A stretch of 64,000 nt of DNA from positions 1-64,000 of the IMG/VR virus record IMGVR_UViG_2816332408_000001; one strand, 5' to 3'. Positions 1,505 to 64,000 of this stretch are shown here, in pieces. Both the position numbers and the translations under genes were made by a program. The DNA comes from an uncultured virus (IMG/VR IMGVR_UViG_2816332408_000001) (Duplodnaviria; Heunggongvirae; Uroviricota; Caudoviricetes). Each line of letters opens with the position of its first letter. The first letter of the stretch is position 1. The notes under the pieces were generated by a model. That model had not been told where the DNA came from and made no database searches. It saw only the letters and a program-made list of their open reading frames with translations.

Positions 1505-2439
1505 TACATATCCTCCGCGTTGCGGAACGACTGCCACGTCGGGAACCTGGGCTTGTCCTTGATCCCCTTGGGGAAGAACTTCGCCTTATGGATTAGCGAC
1601 TTGAACTCGTCCTGATTGATGAAGTAGTGCTTCCTCTGTTCGTGCGTCAAACACCCCGCACCGACACGAACTTCTGCACCCTTGGGGAACAGGAGGGTAT
1701 CGCCGTCCATGACGTCGGCCAGCACGGTGCCCAGCATAGCGCCAACCATGCCATTTGCAACCTTATTCTCCTGATGAGAACTGCGGAAGGTGTTGCCGAG
1801 TTCGTTCGTCTGAGCTTCGTTCTGGTTCTCTTCACCCTCGATGATGGTGTGGACCCGGAACTCGAAGTCAACGAACCGCTTGATGCGCCACTTGTAGAGC
1901 TTCTTCCCCGCGCGCCCGTCCTTGTGAGGCATGTCCGGACCACACAGAACAGTCCCTTCATAACCCGCGATCAGGTTCTCGTCGTCGAACGCTTCCAGCT
2001 CCTCGAGTGAGTGCAGCACGCGCGAGGGCATGATACGCAGATGCGGGAACAGGTGTGGGGCTTCCCCTGCAATCTGGCGCACGCGCTCCTGGAGCTGGAG
2101 CATACGATGCTCATACCCCGCGTTCTTGTTTTCGACCGTAACGTAATCGAACAGCCACCAAAGCACATATGGTTCGCCTAGGATGGTTCCTGTGACGCTC
2201 GACGTAATGCGGCAGAGGTCGGGGTGCGTCTCCCGCTCAGCAGCCAGCTCACCGTCGAACCCGACGAGCGCACTGTGGCTGAGTTGTGTGGTCAGGTAGC
2301 GGTTCTTGAAGGGCTTCAGGGACCGCCCGGTAAGGCGTCCCGTCATGTTGAGCGCACGCACCCCGTCGACCTTGGGTTGCCCGATCATGGGGAACACCAG
2401 CTTGTCAGCCTGCCAGTCGTCGAGTAGATGCGGTTTCAT
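1504..2439 (-). CDS. lig: ATP-dependent DNA ligase
   Basis: KxDGxR (PKVDGVR), FDGE, GYEG, RIK and C-terminal PRFP motifs. Confidence 0.92.
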   Translation of the reverse strand: MKPHLLDDWQADKLVFPMIGQPKVDGVRALNMTGRLTGRSLKPFKNRYLTTQLSHSALVGFDGELAAERETHPDLCRITSSVTGTILGEPYVLWWLFDYVTVENKNAGYEHRMLQLQERVRQIAGEAPHLFPHLRIMPSRVLHSLEELEAFDDENLIAGYEGTVLCGPDMPHKDGRAGKKLYKWRIKRFVDFEFRVHTIIEGEENQNEAQTNELGNTFRSSHQENKVANGMVGAMLGTVLADVMDGDTLLFPKGAEVRVGAGCLTHEQRKHYFINQDEFKSLIHKAKFFPKGIKDKPRFPTWQSFRNAEDM

Positions 2440-2738
2440 TTGACATCCGTCCCTTGTTCTTTAAGCACCCTAGCGAGGTCTTTCAGACTAAGCAAGCCCC
2501 CGCGTGCAATACGCTTGGCCGCGTCATAAGTCTCCTGGATGGCTTCGTGTGTTACCTGATCCTTGAATTCGTCAGGTGTGAGGTTCTTGTCGATGCCTAG
2601 CTTGGGCTCCTCGAACAGCGTGTCATTGTTCACACCGTCCTCGAAGTCACCTAACACCGTCGGGGGCGCATCCGCTGTCAGGATCGCAACGCGGTAGCCC
2701 CGGAAGTGGATTTCGTCCCCGACGATGTAGGTGCTCAT
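2436..2738 (-). CDS. Hypothetical protein
   Basis: Start/stop overlaps with both neighbours. Confidence 0.7.
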   Translation of the reverse strand: MSTYIVGDEIHFRGYRVAILTADAPPTVLGDFEDGVNNDTLFEEPKLGIDKNLTPDEFKDQVTHEAIQETYDAAKRIARGGLLSLKDLARVLKEQGTDVK

Positions 2739-3430
2739 CAGGCTTGTTCCGCCTCGTTCTTGTCCGCTGCGAACGCCAGCGTCGTGACGCCGAAGAACGC
2801 TGCTGACGTGTCAGGGAAGTGCTGCACCAGTAGCTTGGCGCATTGTTCAGCGACGGAGCGGTGCTCAGCCTGCACGCCGATCTCGGTGCGCTCCTTGATG
2901 TAGTGCAGCCACGTGCGAACGCTGAAGTGGAGGTAGAGGGTGCTGGGCACCAGCCCCTCGGGAAGGATGGTCCGTGCAACCTCCTTAGCGACACCGCGCG
3001 ACAGCCACATCTTGTAGTCTGCTTCGTCCGCGGCAGCTTTCACCTTGATGTATTCGTCCCACAGGCGCGCCACCTCGTGCTCCTCGTCCGTCTCCGGAAG
3101 GCGCGACAGCTGGCGATTCGTGGGATGCTGGAAGCGACATTCGCGCGTATCCAGAAGCGTCGCATATTCCGCATAGCGTCCGGAGAACTCCTGGAAGCCA
3201 ATTGCGGACAGGTGGCGCAGGATCTGCCGACCGACGTCGCGGGTTGTGGTCACTTCCAGGCACATGCTTGCCATTTGGAAAGGTGACCAGTGATTGTGAT
3301 CGATTAGGTAGCGGATCAGCCGGGTGGCAGACGCATCCCTATTGCCCGGGTTACTCACCCGGGCAATGTCGGCGATCAGCTTGTCCCCATCGAGCGTCGC
3401 ATGGGTGAAGGCGACCGAATGGTTCTTCAT
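2738..3430 (-). CDS. thyX: Flavin-dependent thymidylate synthase
   Basis: HWSPF, RQILRH...FQEFSGRY, AKEVAR-LP, Q-EHR motifs. Confidence 0.93.
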   Translation of the reverse strand: MKNHSVAFTHATLDGDKLIADIARVSNPGNRDASATRLIRYLIDHNHWSPFQMASMCLEVTTTRDVGRQILRHLSAIGFQEFSGRYAEYATLLDTRECRFQHPTNRQLSRLPETDEEHEVARLWDEYIKVKAAADEADYKMWLSRGVAKEVARTILPEGLVPSTLYLHFSVRTWLHYIKERTEIGVQAEHRSVAEQCAKLLVQHFPDTSAAFFGVTTLAFAADKNEAEQA

Positions 3431-4933: not shown

Positions 4934-4961
4934 TGCATTGCTCCTTTGCTGTGACCCGACC

Positions 4962-4990
4962 TATATGGGGCATAGGTCGGGCCGACGCAA
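4962..4990 (-). promoter_or_regulatory. Sigma70-type promoter overlapped by an inverted repeat
   Basis: TTGCGT-N17-CATATA; CCGACCTAT-N7-ATAGGTCGG at 4956-4980. Confidence 0.55.
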
Positions 4991-4999
4991 GCGAATTGT

Positions 5000-5785
5000 T
5001 TAGTCTTGCAGGTCTTCGCCGTTGAGGTCGCGCATGAGGTTCTCCACCGTGCCATGGCGGGGCAGATCCCCGTCGCGCACTTCCTGGATTGCAGCCTGCG
5101 TCTCCGCGTTGGGAACATGCGCTTCGGTGACGCCCGGCGTGTGGGCGCGCGTGTCCTCTTCGCCCTTGAAGGGTTTGCGCGCCGGAATGACACCCTCTTC
5201 GGGCTGCGCCTTGTCAGCGCGGTCCTGCGCTGCCTGATCGCTGTAGCTGAGCGCCGCGTAACGCTTGGACAGCTTCAAGATGTTGCTGTTGAGGCACTCC
5301 TGGCGTTGCAGGCCGAACATATAGCAGAGCGTGAGCATGGACGCTGCCAGCGCACTGATCTGGTTCGTCAGCAGCTCCAGGTCCAGCTCCTTGTTGTAGA
5401 TCGCCGCCTTCTTGACGGTGTCGAGGACCTGCGAAGCGTGGATTGCGATCGCAGCGCCGACGGGCAGGATCTGGTCCGGACTGATGGTGGCATTGCGCGC
5501 GATTTCGTCCGCCGCGTCCCATTTGATATGCACGCCGCTGCGCTGCACGATCTGCTCGACGTAGAAGAACAGGTCGCCCAGCTCCTCACGCAGATTGACG
5601 CGGTCGATACCGCCTTCAGGCGGGAACATAAGGGCTTCGAGCAGCTCACCCGCTTCGCCGGACACACCCGTGGCGCCGTGCCACAGATCGACGGTGAAGA
5701 CGGAAAGGGTGTCGATGATAGCCTGCGGAGGCTTCACCAGTGCGGCGACAAGCTGCGGATGCGTGATCGATACTGTGGTCATCAT
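5000..5785 (-). CDS. MazG-like NTP pyrophosphohydrolase (internally duplicated) with DinJ/RelB-like C-terminal tail
   Basis: GEAGELLE...REELGDLFFY, degenerate second repeat VLDTVKK, NILKLSKRY; tail PNAETQAAIQE. Confidence 0.85.
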   Translation of the reverse strand: MMTTVSITHPQLVAALVKPPQAIIDTLSVFTVDLWHGATGVSGEAGELLEALMFPPEGGIDRVNLREELGDLFFYVEQIVQRSGVHIKWDAADEIARNATISPDQILPVGAAIAIHASQVLDTVKKAAIYNKELDLELLTNQISALAASMLTLCYMFGLQRQECLNSNILKLSKRYAALSYSDQAAQDRADKAQPEEGVIPARKPFKGEEDTRAHTPGVTEAHVPNAETQAAIQEVRDGDLPRHGTVENLMRDLNGEDLQD

Positions 5786-5843
5786 GTTAACTCCGTTGAA
5801 CGAGGTGCAAAGCATAGCGCGCACCCTAGCGCCATCGCAACAG

Positions 5844-54542: not shown

Positions 54543-55430
54543 TTAGCGCGCGAGCTGCAAGAACTCATTGCGGACAGCGGGGTCATCCTTGAACAGACCC
54601 CGAAGGGCACTGGTCGACGTCTCCGAGCCTTGCTTGCAGATCCCTCGGGACTCCATGCAAAGGTGGCGGGCGGTGATAACGACACCGCAGCCCAGCGCGC
54701 CAAGGTGATCCATGATCGCGTCCGCAACCTGACACCCGAGCCGCTCCTGCACTTGCAGACGCTTGGCGTAGATGTCCAACAGACGCGACAGCTTCGACAG
54801 GCCAACGATCTTCTTGTTCGGGAGATAGCCGATGGTCGCCGTGCCGAAGAACGGTGCCATATGATGCTCGCAGTGCGTATAGAAGGGGATGTTCTTCACG
54901 ACGACCATCTCGTCCACACCCTCGGCGCCGTCCTCGAACGTCTTCAGGATGTCGGCGGGGTCCTTGTCATATCCGCTGCACCATTCCTTCCACGCCTTGG
55001 CAACCCGTGCGGGGGTTTCCGCCAGACCGCCTCGGTCGGGGTTCTCGCCGACGTATTGCAGCAGGCGAACGATATGGTCCTCGATGCCCTTGGACCCGTT
55101 GCCTTCCCACGGCCAGACGACCCATGCGTCTCCGTGCGCCCAGCTACGCTTGTCGATAAGCGCGTAGAACGGCTTGTCGGGGAAGCGTTCCATCGTGCGA
55201 CCCGTGTCGATTAGGTCATCGATGATAGCGTCCGCCTTGGTCCAGTCCTCTTCCACAACGAACACCGAGTCGTCATCGAGCGCGAACACTGCGAGGCGCG
55301 CCGGGATGCCACCAGTGGGCACCGCGTAGAGCTTGATCGGCCGTGTAGTCGGGAAGTCGGTGAGCAGCTTGTTCTGAACCTCCCCAGCCAGATCGAGGAC
55401 GCTCATCGTATCATAGGTCTGCTCAGCCAT
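54543..55430 (-). CDS. folE: GTP cyclohydrolase I with N-terminal purine phosphoribosyltransferase-like domain
   Basis: ETPARVAK, CEHH, GLSKL.R, QVQE, HLCM..RG; N-terminal IIDDLIDTGRT, WVVWPWE. Confidence 0.93.
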   Translation of the reverse strand: MAEQTYDTMSVLDLAGEVQNKLLTDFPTTRPIKLYAVPTGGIPARLAVFALDDDSVFVVEEDWTKADAIIDDLIDTGRTMERFPDKPFYALIDKRSWAHGDAWVVWPWEGNGSKGIEDHIVRLLQYVGENPDRGGLAETPARVAKAWKEWCSGYDKDPADILKTFEDGAEGVDEMVVVKNIPFYTHCEHHMAPFFGTATIGYLPNKKIVGLSKLSRLLDIYAKRLQVQERLGCQVADAIMDHLGALGCGVVITARHLCMESRGICKQGSETSTSALRGLFKDDPAVRNEFLQLAR

Positions 55431-55893
55431 TGTTCTCTCCGTAGTAAATGGCGCTGTTGGCGCCGTGTTCGCGAACTTCGACAGACACAAGGCGCAAGCC
55501 CCGGATGTCGCACTCGAGGGGCATTGCATCGCCCAGCCACGTATCGACGCGGTCATAGACGAACTTGGCGAACCCTTCGCACCCGACGAACGGGAGCACA
55601 AGGATCGGGGTGAACCCGCACTTCTCGTAGAGGGCTTGGAAGTCCGCCAGGAACGGGTCGTGCTCCGCCAGGATCATCCGATGGTCGAAGTTGTCCACCA
55701 GCCATTGCTTGATGGGCTTCAACCCGCCGAAGTCGATCACCCAATTGTCCCGGTCGAGGGTGTGGGCACTGAACGTCAGCTTGAACGACAGGGGGTAGCC
55801 ATGGGGGTTGCAGCAATGGCTGAGCGCCTTCGGCTGGCGGAACGTAGCGGCGAGCCCGAGGTTGTGGTCATAGGTTTTCGTGACTGAATACAC
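55423..55893 (-). CDS. queD: 6-carboxy-5,6,7,8-tetrahydropterin synthase
   Basis: C..PHGY, WVIDFGGLK, FDH, E.FA, VREH..NSA. Confidence 0.92.
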   Translation of the reverse strand: MYSVTKTYDHNLGLAATFRQPKALSHCCNPHGYPLSFKLTFSAHTLDRDNWVIDFGGLKPIKQWLVDNFDHRMILAEHDPFLADFQALYEKCGFTPILVLPFVGCEGFAKFVYDRVDTWLGDAMPLECDIRGLRLVSVEVREHGANSAIYYGENNG

Positions 55894-55895
55894 GG

Positions 55896-57308
55896 TTAGC
55901 TATCCTTCCGAGCATACTGAAGGGGATCCTCCAGTCCGTTAATGGTATAGGCGGTCTTGCGCATAAAGCAAGGGCCGCAAGTGCCGCAGTGGACGGGTCC
56001 GCTGCGATAGCAGCTCCACGTTAGCCCCATGGGCGCCCCGAGCTGCTCGCCGAGTGCGACGATCTCGTGCTTCATCAGGTTGCCGACAGGCATGACCACA
56101 CTGAGTCGCTTCCCGTCGCCCACCGCGAACGGCAACATCTCGTTGAAGCGGTTAATGAACTCAGGCTCGTTGTCGGGGTAGGCACCCGCTTCCTCGAGGT
56201 TGTTCCCCAGCCCGATCAGGTCGAACCCTTTGGCTTCCGCGTAGGCAGTCGCAAGGGAGAGCATAACGAGGTTCCGGGCAGGAACCCATTCATGAGCGAA
56301 TTCAGCACCCGCTTCGCCTCCAGCGATTTCGCTGTCCGCCTGGAGTAGCGGGCTGTCTTCTTTGTCATAGATCCCCATCGGCAGGACGTGGAGCGGAACT
56401 TGCATAGCGTTGGAGACCGCCATGATAGCAGCATACTCAGGTGACTCAGCGCGCGAGCCATATTGGAAGTGCAGCAAGTGGACGTCGCACCCGTCGGCCT
56501 GTAGGGCCTTTGCAGCGACGACGCTGTCCATGCCACCGCTACAGACGACCAGCGCCTTTCGCCCCTGTAGCACGGCGGGATCGAGGCGGTGCGCGTGCAT
56601 GGGGGTGAACCGCCAGGCGCTGTAGGGTGGCACCATCTGCGGCGCGAACCCTGCCGGGAAGTAGTCCTTGGACGACGCGAAGAAGCACGCTCCGTCGAGC
56701 CACGCATACCAGATCGGACGATAGTTGCACGCCGCGAACACGACACCCGGATAATGGTCGTGCGTTGCGAGGATCGCATAGCTTCCTTTCAGGTGTGACA
56801 CCATGTTGAAGAACGTGGCGCTGAGCTCTGTCTCGGTAGCGGTGTCGTTCGTCTCGTCCCGCGCAAGGAACTCAGCAATCGCAGCACTGTCGACGCCGGT
56901 TGGCAGCTTCTGCCCCGCGAAGTGATTGCGCAGTTCGTGATCGTTGGCGATCGTTCCGTTGTGAACGACGTTCCACCCGCCGGCGCGATAGGGTTGCTGG
57001 TCGAACTCCCGCTTCTCCGCAACGTATTCGGTCGTCGGCTCTGCGCGGAGGTTGCCGATGATACCGCCCTGATGGATAGGGTGCATCTCGTCGAAGAAAT
57101 CGTTGCGACCGTGCAAGCTATTGCGTTCGACAGACTTGCGCTCGAAGTTGTATCCGGTCGAGTGCCCTCGGTCCTCCTGGACATGGTATCCCCAGCCGTC
57201 CCGCCCCCGCTCACCCGACGCGACCATAATCTGATTCATGATCTGATTCGTTCGGGTGACGTGCATAGGCGACATGCCCCATACGAGGCATCCAAAGATT
57301 GCGCACAT
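55896..57308 (-). CDS. gat-queC: Gat-QueC: class II glutamine amidotransferase fused to 7-cyano-7-deazaguanine synthase
   Basis: N-terminal MCAIFG, RG.DG.G, HNG.I.N; SGGMDS, VPARN, YPD, TWSCY..CGTCGPC. Confidence 0.93.
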   Translation of the reverse strand: MCAIFGCLVWGMSPMHVTRTNQIMNQIMVASGERGRDGWGYHVQEDRGHSTGYNFERKSVERNSLHGRNDFFDEMHPIHQGGIIGNLRAEPTTEYVAEKREFDQQPYRAGGWNVVHNGTIANDHELRNHFAGQKLPTGVDSAAIAEFLARDETNDTATETELSATFFNMVSHLKGSYAILATHDHYPGVVFAACNYRPIWYAWLDGACFFASSKDYFPAGFAPQMVPPYSAWRFTPMHAHRLDPAVLQGRKALVVCSGGMDSVVAAKALQADGCDVHLLHFQYGSRAESPEYAAIMAVSNAMQVPLHVLPMGIYDKEDSPLLQADSEIAGGEAGAEFAHEWVPARNLVMLSLATAYAEAKGFDLIGLGNNLEEAGAYPDNEPEFINRFNEMLPFAVGDGKRLSVVMPVGNLMKHEIVALGEQLGAPMGLTWSCYRSGPVHCGTCGPCFMRKTAYTINGLEDPLQYARKDS

Positions 57309-57309
57309 A

Positions 57310-58026
57310 TTATTCGACTCCGATGTATTTGTGAACCTGGAGCTGGAGGATGTAGCCGTGCGCTAAGCTCGACTCGACCGCCGCAGCGGTGTTCCGCGCG
57401 TTGATGGACGTGTTCTTGTCGTCCTGAGGCTGGATGTAGNCCAGTCCGTCCCAGCCGTAGGGCGGTCGCGCGGGGTAGGGGTTGGAGCGGTGCCCCAGCG
57501 CGTTCTTCGGCAGACCGTCGGTGTGCTCGTCCCCTGCCTGCACGACATACTTCAGGGCGCACGCGGCCTCCAGCGCCAGCGGGTTGAGCTTGCCCGTCTT
57601 GGGGCTCACAACAAGATACGCACCCCGCCGCGCACCGATATCACGGTTCCAGGGCAGCATCGGCGGGTTCATGGTGCCGTTGCTTTCGACCTGCACGAAG
57701 AACCCGTTATGGATGAGCATGTCGATCAGCTCACCGATGTGCTGCCTGAACGGTTCGCCGCCGGTGATGACCACAAGCCCAGGGTCCGGGCGCTGCCATT
57801 CGTCACGGACCGCTAACACGATTGCGCGCGGTTCCAGGATCAGTCTGTGGGAGGTGTAGTCAGTGTCGCAGGACGGACACTGGAGGTTGCATCCCGCTAG
57901 GCGGACAAAGACGCAAGGGGTGCCGCAGAAAGGGCCCTCGCCCTGTATCGTCTTGAAGATGCTGTGGATCTGGAGCGTCCCCTCATAGGAGGGTTCACGC
58001 TTCTCGATGGGTTGCTGGTTTATCAC
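57310..58026 (-). CDS. queE: 7-carboxy-7-deazaguanine synthase (radical SAM)
   Basis: IF.TIQGEG, CNLQCPSCDT, TGGEP, ESNG, VSPK, Q.HK. Confidence 0.95.
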   Translation of the reverse strand: MINQQPIEKREPSYEGTLQIHSIFKTIQGEGPFCGTPCVFVRLAGCNLQCPSCDTDYTSHRLILEPRAIVLAVRDEWQRPDPGLVVITGGEPFRQHIGELIDMLIHNGFFVQVESNGTMNPPMLPWNRDIGARRGAYLVVSPKTGKLNPLALEAACALKYVVQAGDEHTDGLPKNALGHRSNPYPARPPYGWDGLXYIQPQDDKNTSINARNTAAAVESSLAHGYILQLQVHKYIGVE

Positions 58027-58075
58027 GGTTCCTCCGGAGGTGGCTAGACGCATAGCCTAGCAGGTTTCGGGGCAT

Positions 58076-62848: not shown

Positions 62849-63805
62849 TTACGCCTGAGGCGCGGCCCACGGGGGAGCGGCACCAGCAGCGGCAGCCGCC
62901 GCAGCAGGGTCCGGAGCACCCGGCGCCGCCGGTGCAGCCGCAGCAGCTTCGGCAGGGGCGGCACCGCCGGCCCAGGGCTGAGCAGCGGGTGCGCCACCGA
63001 ACGGGCTGTCCGCGAGCGCGGCAGCGGGTGCGCCGGCCCAGGGCGAGTCAGCCGCAGGCGCCGCCGGTGCTGCCGGGGCAGCGGGTGCGGCAGGCGCAGC
63101 GGGGGCAGCCGGAGCGGCGACCGGCGCGGGATACAGCTCGATGAGCTTCACGGTCTCATGGACCTTGTCGCCCTTCCAGTGATACGCCGGGTTCGTCGGG
63201 TGCAGTGCCCAGCCATCCGCTTCTGCGGCTGCCTTCGGGTCGTGCGCGACGGGCGCTGCGGGAGCAGCGGGTGCCGCCGGTGCAGCAGGCGCCGCGGGAG
63301 CGAAGCCTGCGGGTGCAGCCGCAGGAGCGGCAGCGGCAGTTCCGAAGCCAGCGGGAACACCACCAGCCGCCGGAGCAGCGGCAGCGCCGGCGCCCACGGT
63401 TTCGACCGCCTCGTTGATGTTCTTATACGAGATGATCTCGTTCTGGTCTTCGTAGTTGTCGTCGCCCTTGCGGATCTTGACCTTGATCTTCAGCGGGATG
63501 CCGTGGAGCTGCTCGCTGTTCGCGATGTGCAGCACGCCGACCGCGTGACCGATGGCGGAGAGTTGCTTGAGCGCAATCTCCTGGGCGGTCGCATTCGCGT
63601 TCTTGATGTTCAAGCGCGCGAACAGCTTGCGATTGGCGTATTGCCCGTCGATCACCGCAAAGCGGACCTGCAGATAGCTGCCGGCGCCGTCCTTCGTGGG
63701 CTTGATCTCGGACTCGTCCATCTTGGCGTTATACCAGCCGGCCGGGATCACATCGAACCCGGTATCCGGTTCCACCTGAGTGGCATCGAAGTTCAGTTGT
63801 GCCAT
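62849..63805 (-). CDS. DUF669 ssDNA-binding protein with Ala/Pro-rich tail
   Basis: FDATQVEP..F..IPAGWY, G.Y..RK.F, NEI..YK, terminal PPW. Confidence 0.88.
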   Translation of the reverse strand: MAQLNFDATQVEPDTGFDVIPAGWYNAKMDESEIKPTKDGAGSYLQVRFAVIDGQYANRKLFARLNIKNANATAQEIALKQLSAIGHAVGVLHIANSEQLHGIPLKIKVKIRKGDDNYEDQNEIISYKNINEAVETVGAGAAAAPAAGGVPAGFGTAAAAPAAAPAGFAPAAPAAPAAPAAPAAPVAHDPKAAAEADGWALHPTNPAYHWKGDKVHETVKLIELYPAPVAAPAAPAAPAAPAAPAAPAAPAADSPWAGAPAAALADSPFGGAPAAQPWAGGAAPAEAAAAAPAAPGAPDPAAAAAAAGAAPPWAAPQA

Positions 63806-64000
63806 GGTATGCTTATTCCTTTCATCGGCGGCGGATCAAGCCGCCATTATTTTTGCAAAAATCGCGCTGAGGATTGGAGGTTCGATCGAAGCCAGCGCGC
63901 CACTCCGATCTTTCGCTACATACTGCAGATCAGGCTGAGTCTGTAGGAAACGATATGACTCCCCTTGGGGCGTCTTGTTGATGCCGAGGCGGAACACCTC
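63062..64000. repeat. Second copy of the 939-bp overlap
   Basis: Matches 5-943. Confidence 0.97.

Follow-up and report, generated by a model that had tools for sequence, protein, structure and literature searches.

Why should a phage enzyme of the MazG type end in what looks like the toxin-binding part of a bacterial antitoxin? The question is raised by a gene on the minus strand of a stretch of 64,000 nucleotides from an uncultured Caudoviricetes virus (IMG/VR record IMGVR_UViG_2816332408_000001, positions 1 to 64,000), called here the window. The product of this gene, named below the MazG-tail protein, joins a MazG-like core through a disordered linker to a short C-terminal module of the DinJ type (Table 1). 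The answer that we favour, and to which we give about an even chance, is that a captured DinJ-type toxin-binding peptide carried on MazG would neutralise a YafQ-type toxin of the host or of a prophage.

An earlier, sequence-only reading of the locus had described a MazG domain, a Pro-rich linker and a tail resembling the toxin-binding segment of DinJ/RelB antitoxins without their N-terminal ribbon-helix-helix (RHH) part. The part upstream of the tail is indeed MazG-like: PHROG_229, 'MazG-like pyrophosphatase', matches residues 10-199 (E 1e-21), and the Pfam family MazG (PF03819) matches with E 7e-4 and 20.3 bits, under its 22-bit cut-off. In the AlphaFold2 model this core (residues 1-190) is all helical, with a predicted local distance difference test score (pLDDT) of 96-99. 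The linker has no secondary structure in the model (pLDDT about 52-57) and deserves the name Pro-rich only loosely, for residues 191-220 include 5 Pro but consist chiefly of E, K, G and T. The stretch RKPFKGE (EDTRAHTPGVTE) of the linker is common to orthologues which have no module. The module itself is modelled as two helices, 227-237 and 247-255, with a loop between them.

Translation of window positions 5003-5125 gives EAHVPNAETQAAIQEVRDGDLPRHGTVENLMRDLNGEDLQD. The tail peptide quoted in the earlier reading is present there, but its claimed end at ...GED was wrong, the final LQD having been left out. The orthologues P0010 and P0046 terminate in IGENLQD, and as some orthologues end in ...GENLQD, to judge by sequence LQD may perhaps be the ancestral C-terminus. 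Upstream starts at 5815 and 5860 are possible alternatives for the gene. The protein collection holds both a 261-aa form (P0004), from 57 contigs, and a 271-aa form with an earlier start and otherwise identical sequence, from 23 contigs.

How close is the tail to known antitoxins? With phmmer against 1.84 billion representatives it finds two short proteins with the same module (E 2.6e-6 and 6e-4; 60% and 58% identity to the tail). With tblastn against 50,697 phage records it finds an 87-aa open reading frame (ORF), L003, which is an antitoxin of the RelB family (PF04221, E 1.9e-20) and has a YafQ toxin (PF15738, E 9e-31) directly downstream; the final 36 residues of L003 are 50% identical to the tail. 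An alignment of L003 and the two phmmer proteins led to 151 confirmed matches in bacterial genomes, of which the best 80 were kept, with 46-65% identity to the tail over about 31-41 residues. Local hidden Markov models (HMMs) were built from 72 distinct bacterial antitoxins, with the window excluded. The full model scores the tail at 43.4 bits and the module-only model at 55.6-55.7 bits over residues 221-258; among 1398 six-frame ORFs of the window the tail is the sole match, the runner-up having E 0.18. The match spans model positions 51-88 only, the RHH part being absent.

Comparison of profiles gives the same picture. A profile of 67 DinJ-like antitoxins aligns with the tail by hhalign with a probability of 98.2% (E 2.9e-14, 38 columns), and the profile of these 67 carriers matches the chains 4q2u_A and 4ml0_A of Escherichia coli DinJ over their whole length at E 5e-25. 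The tail keeps the module's eight invariant columns without exception (P, N, T, A, G, L, D, L; alignment A4), and its second helix (VENLMRDLN) aligns with the terminal stretch of DinJ. Judged by these profiles, the resemblance of the tail to the C-termini of DinJ/RelB antitoxins is far above chance at the subfamily level. Both the likeness to the toxin-binding segment and the lack of the RHH part that the sequence-only reading had seen by eye are thus borne out. It had also named a lack of similarity to RelB/DinJ profiles as a finding that would speak against it, and here the outcome is divided: the DinJ subfamily profile matches, whereas the Pfam RelB model (PF04221) has no match to the tail or to the whole protein at E<=10.

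Some further searches should be mentioned beside these. A word-indexed search on the tail returned its own cluster only among 'near' lengths and none among 'shorter' ones, which reflects the word index and not absence. In a protein atlas the scores for the tail were 0.82-0.85, and in one cluster 17% of the members carried RelB, a result that can serve as a lead only. Three of the five phmmer matches were repeat proteins and were rejected as chance or convergent: they cover only the last ~23 residues of the tail, without the PNAET helix, and their scores were summed over 6-7 repeats (P0124 and P0126 with FDGTVTNLMADVNGDG... repeats, P0127 with a junk repeat).

With which toxin does the module occur in other genomes? 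Nearly all of the best 80 carriers are proteins of about 87 aa with the module at the extreme C-terminus. We examined 88 loci (8 viral and 80 bacterial), 80 of which had a downstream ORF under the rule used, a rough one which counts too few of the toxins encoded on the opposite strand. In 64 of the 80 this ORF encodes a YafQ toxin (YafQ_toxin, PF15738, E<=0.001), namely at 59 of the 74 bacterial loci and at 5 of the 6 viral ones, one of these ORFs (L023) being under the Pfam cut-off. Three of the misses (L050, L085 and L064) have a YafQ gene that is encoded on the opposite strand or lies some 1 kb away, and another, L014, retains a truncated YafQ remnant. At 16 further viral loci a DinJ-like antitoxin is followed by a YafQ-like ORF of 93-111 aa, as recognised by eye and length, without Pfam. 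In one viral antitoxin of 70 aa (L007) the module follows a different N-terminus and is again paired with YafQ. A second metagenome scan gave two canonical DinJ-YafQ loci, both with VPNAETQAAIQE. According to PMC12301738, DinJ wraps its C-terminus round YafQ, and the complex is lost on deletion of the last nine DinJ residues (77-86).

Two unusual arrangements were seen among the bacterial loci. In L050 and L085, which are metagenome-assembled genomes (MAGs) labelled Sphingomonadales, the DinJ-like gene has the YafQ-like toxin upstream of it and on the opposite strand, and not downstream in an operon. In L016 (~1000-1700), a MAG chromosome labelled Thalassobaculaceae, the module is found twice in tandem upstream of the gene for a short-chain dehydrogenase, each copy after a basic stretch and not after an RHH domain, and the 63-aa protein P0128 is built alike. 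These modules may be RHH-less mini-antitoxins or gene remnants.

Does the phage bring such a toxin with it? The window is nearly all of a virus record of 65,190 bases judged complete, and in this record PF15738, PF05016 and PF04221 have no match at E<=1. An HMM of 45 YafQ toxins reaches E 1.9 at best among the six-frame ORFs, and families of the RelE/ParE clan are found in none of 135 candidate ORFs. A phage-encoded cognate toxin was therefore rejected, since the YafQ model, the ParE/RelE models and the YafQ HMM were all without a match, and any toxin partner of the tail is not encoded by the phage. Here, as in the phage orphan antitoxins, an antitoxin-like element is thus encoded by a phage without its toxin.

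The next question is how the MazG-tail protein came to have its tail. A full-length search gave 134 MazG homologues, 120 of which were taken in (119 others and the own cluster). Among these 120 of 134 the tail is covered by the own cluster alone, and the module HMM matches none of the 119 others among the matches listed (best E 0.84). The sequence-only reading had asked whether orthologous phage MazGs lack the tail; they do, including the closest named one, gp50 of Sphingomonas phage vB_StuS_MMDA13 (putative nucleotide pyrophosphohydrolase), which is 65.9% identical over residues 1-214, is 226 aa long and ends in ...DAEKKS without the module. MMDA13 matches a 5.8-kb stretch around the gene with 76.9% nucleotide identity over 74% of the stretch. 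In the DNA alignment the coding flank is conserved through ...TTCAAGGG, and so is the other flank, which comprises the hairpin downstream, the ribosome-binding site and the gene that follows; about 100 extra in-frame nucleotides of the window carry the module. At the protein level the orthologues share the linker through ...RKPFKGEEDTRAHTPGVTE and then have short, varied tails.

The tail has a GC content at third codon positions of 0.77, against 0.82 in the core, and at the DNA level the fetched locus that matches it best is the viral contig L006, with 87% over 45 nt. Because its codon composition is phage-like and there is no close nucleotide match, the tail is not a fresh, unselected capture from the fetched sources. 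The module is a lineage-specific in-frame gain, and not a recent capture from any source that was fetched.

Several other origins were considered and rejected. Very recent capture from a sampled genome disagrees with the best match just given, which is to another viral locus. For a close donor in the order to which L064 belongs, the best identity was 53%, with 14 of 401 genomes matching. Assembly chimera is ruled out by the identical protein on 57 + 23 contigs, by a second viral contig which is 100% identical, and by the colinearity of both flanks of the module with MMDA13. A first metagenome scan gave 598 pattern matches, 0 of them confirmed, and the second gave no further MazG-plus-tail.

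Past the shared RKPFKGE linker, the C-termini of the MazG family (P0005-P0090) show recurrent short 'cassettes', for example ...PRTSDMADVVEAEKRA, ...DDVVRRGMLGKDA, ...PPGNPEE and ...IGENLQD. The longer C-terminal add-ons of a few homologues had no match in Pfam, nothing antitoxin-like being found.

The module occurs in other phage proteins as well. In the Brevundimonas jumbo phages Marchewka and Bambus it (IPNAATEAALEAVEAGDVTRHDTVDDLMADLNAPD; 46.1 bits) lies mid-way in a long protein. In the viral contig L006 it is carried by a small protein of a replication module, encoded immediately upstream of the gene for a DUF2800/PD-(D/E)XK nuclease, and in the viral contig L009 it is preceded by a CxxC...CxxC stretch. 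No YafQ-like ORF was found within ~2.5 kb of the Marchewka, L006 or L009 carriers (in a 5-kb locus for Marchewka). Because it is carried by unrelated phage proteins and by the L007 antitoxin with its different N-terminus, the module behaves as a movable unit.

Table 1. Coordinates of the MazG-tail gene and its parts, of the 7-deazaguanine cluster of the window, and of other phage genes that carry the module.
Feature	Sequence	Coordinates	Strand	Remarks
MazG-tail gene	window	5000..5785	-	261 aa; ATG 5783-5785, stop TAA 5000-5002
MazG-like all-alpha nucleoside triphosphate pyrophosphohydrolase core	window	5216..5785	-	residues 1-190; PHROG_229, AlphaFold2
Disordered linker	window	5126..5215	-	residues 191-220, ...ADKAQPEEGVIPARKPFKGEEDTRAHTPGVT; low pLDDT
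DinJ-type toxin-neutralising module	window	5012..5125	-	residues 221-258, EAHVPNAETQAAIQEVRDGDLPRHGTVENLMRDLNGED; hhalign, HMM
LQD, last three residues past the module	window	5003..5011	-	protein end ...DLNGEDLQD
GTP cyclohydrolase I	window	54546-55601	-	7-deazaguanine cluster
PTPS/QueD	window	55426-55893	-	7-deazaguanine cluster
QueC with N-terminal glutamine amidotransferase domain	window	55899-57308	-	7-deazaguanine cluster
Radical-SAM protein	window	57313-58053	-	7-deazaguanine cluster
547-aa hypothetical protein	L002, Brevundimonas phage Marchewka	1487-3130		no Pfam family
132-aa module protein	L006, viral contig	2396-2794		32.6 bits
Zinc-ribbon-like module protein	L009, viral contig	2261-2596		34.0 bits

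What can be said of the enzyme that bears the tail? MazG-like proteins are defined by a pair of acidic motifs, ExxE ... ExxD, that bind metal. The acidic residues E44, E47, E67, E68 and D71 are invariant among 70 aligned homologues, and their spacing in the sequence fits EAGE ... (E)ELGD, so the paired motif is present. NCBIfam has no relevant match to the core. When the model was compared with the PDB by Foldseek, nothing matched at E<=0.001, and the sole related entries were the dimeric dUTPases 5myf_D, 5mil_A and 1w2y_B, with E-values of 0.21-0.34 at probabilities of 0.93-0.96. MazG-like proteins are perhaps oligomers, and if so, the fusion would display several tails, like the DinJ dimer.

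How could a tail of this kind help a phage? In the reading that we favour, the MazG lineage has gained, via in-frame insertion near the 3' end of the gene, only the 38-aa toxin-neutralising peptide of DinJ. During infection host gene expression would drop and labile DinJ of the host or prophage would decay, and the freed YafQ, a ribosome-dependent mRNA endonuclease, would abort the infection. The phage tail, as a decoy or a substitute for the antitoxin, would on its long flexible linker of 30 residues wrap YafQ and hold the toxin inactive and off the ribosome. The MazG core would retain its own enzymatic role, perhaps the hydrolysis of pool nucleotides or of alarmones; in the latter case the enzyme, too, could damp the activation of toxin-antitoxin systems. 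Of all this, the analysis establishes the homology, the domain layout, the lack of a toxin in the phage and the insertion peculiar to this lineage, whereas we infer the binding, the neutralisation, the trigger and the host toxin that is the target. The text of PMC11980606 that deals with YafQ classes it only as a ribosome-dependent mRNase. As to the host, a hint is given only by the closest named phage, which infects Sphingomonas.

Several points weigh against this reading. The tail alone has no match at E<=10 in Pfam RelB, NCBIfam, PHROGs or by phmmer in the PDB, and as the sequences behind the subfamily HMM and profile had been retrieved with the tail, both are biased towards it. The tail has H (PRHG) for a near-invariant F and G for a near-invariant A, the LPF motif which precedes the module in antitoxins is missing, and three residues trail the module in the phage protein where in antitoxins the module is the protein end, the last nine residues of DinJ being critical. 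Cross-talk between non-cognate toxins and antitoxins is rare, as described in PMC12301738. The fusion is represented by a single sequence variant (57 + 23 contigs). YafQ is present in 7 of 201 sampled genomes of the order of L064 (Sphingomonas-labelled) and a tail-like module in 14 of 401; this order was sampled as a guess at the host clade. No report of DinJ-YafQ in phage defence was found in the literature searched, and PADLOC v2 has no model matching the tested YafQ toxins or the DinJ-like antitoxin, although absence from a defence catalogue of 2023 is weak evidence.

A rival origin would be that illegitimate recombination pasted a dinJ fragment into the variable, disordered 3' end of the gene, where it was tolerated and remained inert. 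In this MazG family the tails at the C-terminus vary greatly, are disordered and end in many different ways, the module is confined to one lineage (0 of 119 other homologues listed), its one sequence variant bears no sign of purifying selection, and YafQ is rare in the sampled order, as said above. A neutral relic of this sort nevertheless appears unlikely to us: the insertion is in frame and has kept 8 of 8 invariant columns and both predicted helices, its codon composition is that of the phage and none of the fetched loci matches it closely at the nucleotide level, it comprises exactly the toxin-binding part and nothing of the RHH domain, and similar orphan modules stand in at least three other phage proteins.

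Could the tail act on MazG itself, as a protease-recognition or instability signal, an autoinhibitory segment or a docking peptide which times or localises the enzyme? No orthologue needs such a tail, the model shows no packing of the tail on the core (though pLDDT there is low), and a degron would not require conserved, invariant toxin-contact columns. It is true that antitoxin C-termini are labile, that DinJ is described as degraded proteolytically under stress (PMC4652777), and that the tail is predicted to be exposed on its disordered linker, yet we regard a regulatory tail as quite improbable. Still more doubtful is the reuse of the module as a general helix-loop-helix adaptor whose partner is a different protein of the RelE fold or some unrelated protein of host or phage, which would suit the F to H replacement, the three residues added at the end, the embedding of the module in unrelated phage proteins (in Marchewka in the middle of 547 aa) and the small non-RHH carriers without an adjacent toxin (P0128, L016), but the partner in every readable neighbourhood is of the YafQ family (64 of 80 ORFs and, by eye, 16 of 16 further viral loci) and a RelE/ParE-clan protein was undetected in the phage record.

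The MazG-tail gene lies in a module of replication and nucleotide genes, its neighbours being primase/helicase, DUF7173, RNase H, ThyX, a ligase-like gene and AAA_24. The gene order in MMDA13 is the same, with primase/helicase, MazG, DUF7173 'host nuclease inhibitor' and RNase H. Directly 3' of the MazG stop, at window positions 4934-5002 on the minus strand, lies a strong hairpin with a perfect stem of 13 bp (-29.1 kcal/mol, z -4.7); for want of a U-tract it was not called by the terminator scan, and its position is kept in MMDA13.

Elsewhere in the window, at 54546-58053 on the minus strand, there is a cluster for 7-deazaguanine (queuosine-type) synthesis. Clusters of this kind make modified DNA bases that shield phage DNA from restriction, and the cluster may be relevant to the substrate of the MazG core. 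The two ends of the window, 101-889 and 63158-63946, are repeats of one another at a period of 63,057 bases, and the record therefore has either a long terminal repeat or a wrapped circular permutation. Single N positions in the window number 18.

If the tail neutralises YafQ, it would be a natural minimal antitoxin peptide, free of RHH and acting in trans, and would inform us how little of an antitoxin suffices and what sets the specificity of toxin-antitoxin pairs. It would also be indirect but strong evidence that DinJ-YafQ, whose role is still debated, restricts phages. Counter-defence could then hide as short C-terminal add-ons on metabolic enzymes and be missed by domain-level annotation; the tail here is flagged by no Pfam, NCBIfam or PHROG model. 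If, on the other hand, the tail is inert, we have an ordinary phage MazG with an odd recombination scar.

A wider conjecture, which we advance as a doubtful one, is that phages take from type II antitoxins the peptide which grips the toxin and attach it to unrelated proteins, where it would serve as a portable anti-toxin 'plug', and that DinJ-YafQ is anti-phage. The carriers of the 'plug' would be the MazG enzyme, the 547-aa protein of jumbo phages, the Zn-ribbon protein and the small protein of a replication module. If this were true, DinJ-YafQ modules, many of them on viral contigs, would be systems of abortive infection or superinfection exclusion, and the MazG fusion would counter toxin-antitoxin killing in two ways, through a lower alarmone or nucleotide signal and through direct sequestration of the toxin.

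It remains to compare the MazG-tail protein with known systems. One of the nearest is E. coli DinJ (4Q2U, 4ML0), whose helix-loop-helix layout is common to the tail. Pairwise similarity of the tail to E. coli DinJ itself is undetectable by phmmer in the PDB, and the profile of 67 homologues bridges 4q2u_A (E 5e-25) and the tail (98.2%). Unlike DinJ, the phage protein has no RHH domain for DNA binding and dimerisation and no adjacent yafQ, and its segment is fused behind an enzyme and followed by three extra C-terminal residues. By its sequence the tail would work like the C-terminal domain of DinJ, yet, having neither an RHH domain nor a toxin next to it, the protein falls outside the usual definition of the RelB/DinJ family.

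That phages can carry antitoxin functions is already known. The orphan NADAR antitoxin-like enzymes of T4-like phages are described as countering DarTG1 (PMC11825919). They would be like our tail in that a phage has an antitoxin function without the toxin and so survives a toxin-antitoxin system of the host; in the NADARs, as that source presents them, this function was captured from relatives of cellular antitoxins. The NADARs are whole, free-standing proteins, and antitoxins of the DarG type act as enzymes, whereas here we have only the binding peptide of a type II antitoxin, placed on another enzyme. T4 Dmd, which is likewise a free-standing phage antitoxin, reportedly counters RnlA/LsoA.

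On the side of the enzyme, the comparison is with Atd1, a phage MazG-like enzyme which is described as depleting (p)ppGpp, so that host toxin-antitoxin suicide modules are not mobilised, and blocking killing of the MazEF type (bioRxiv 10.1101/2022.06.09.495361). By description only, Atd1 and the protein of the window would be alike both as phage MazG-like enzymes and in the theme of keeping host toxins silent, and for the MazG core as an anti-defence enzyme this parallel is suggestive. They differ in that no antitoxin-like tail is described for Atd1 in that preprint, as far as its account of the protein goes. A published fusion of MazG with an antitoxin tail was not found in the literature searched, supplements being outside its scope. 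What would be new in the protein of the window, as compared with all these systems, is that only the binding peptide of a type II antitoxin has been taken and grafted on a metabolic enzyme, and that the toxin family which it would target is one so far unlinked to phage defence.

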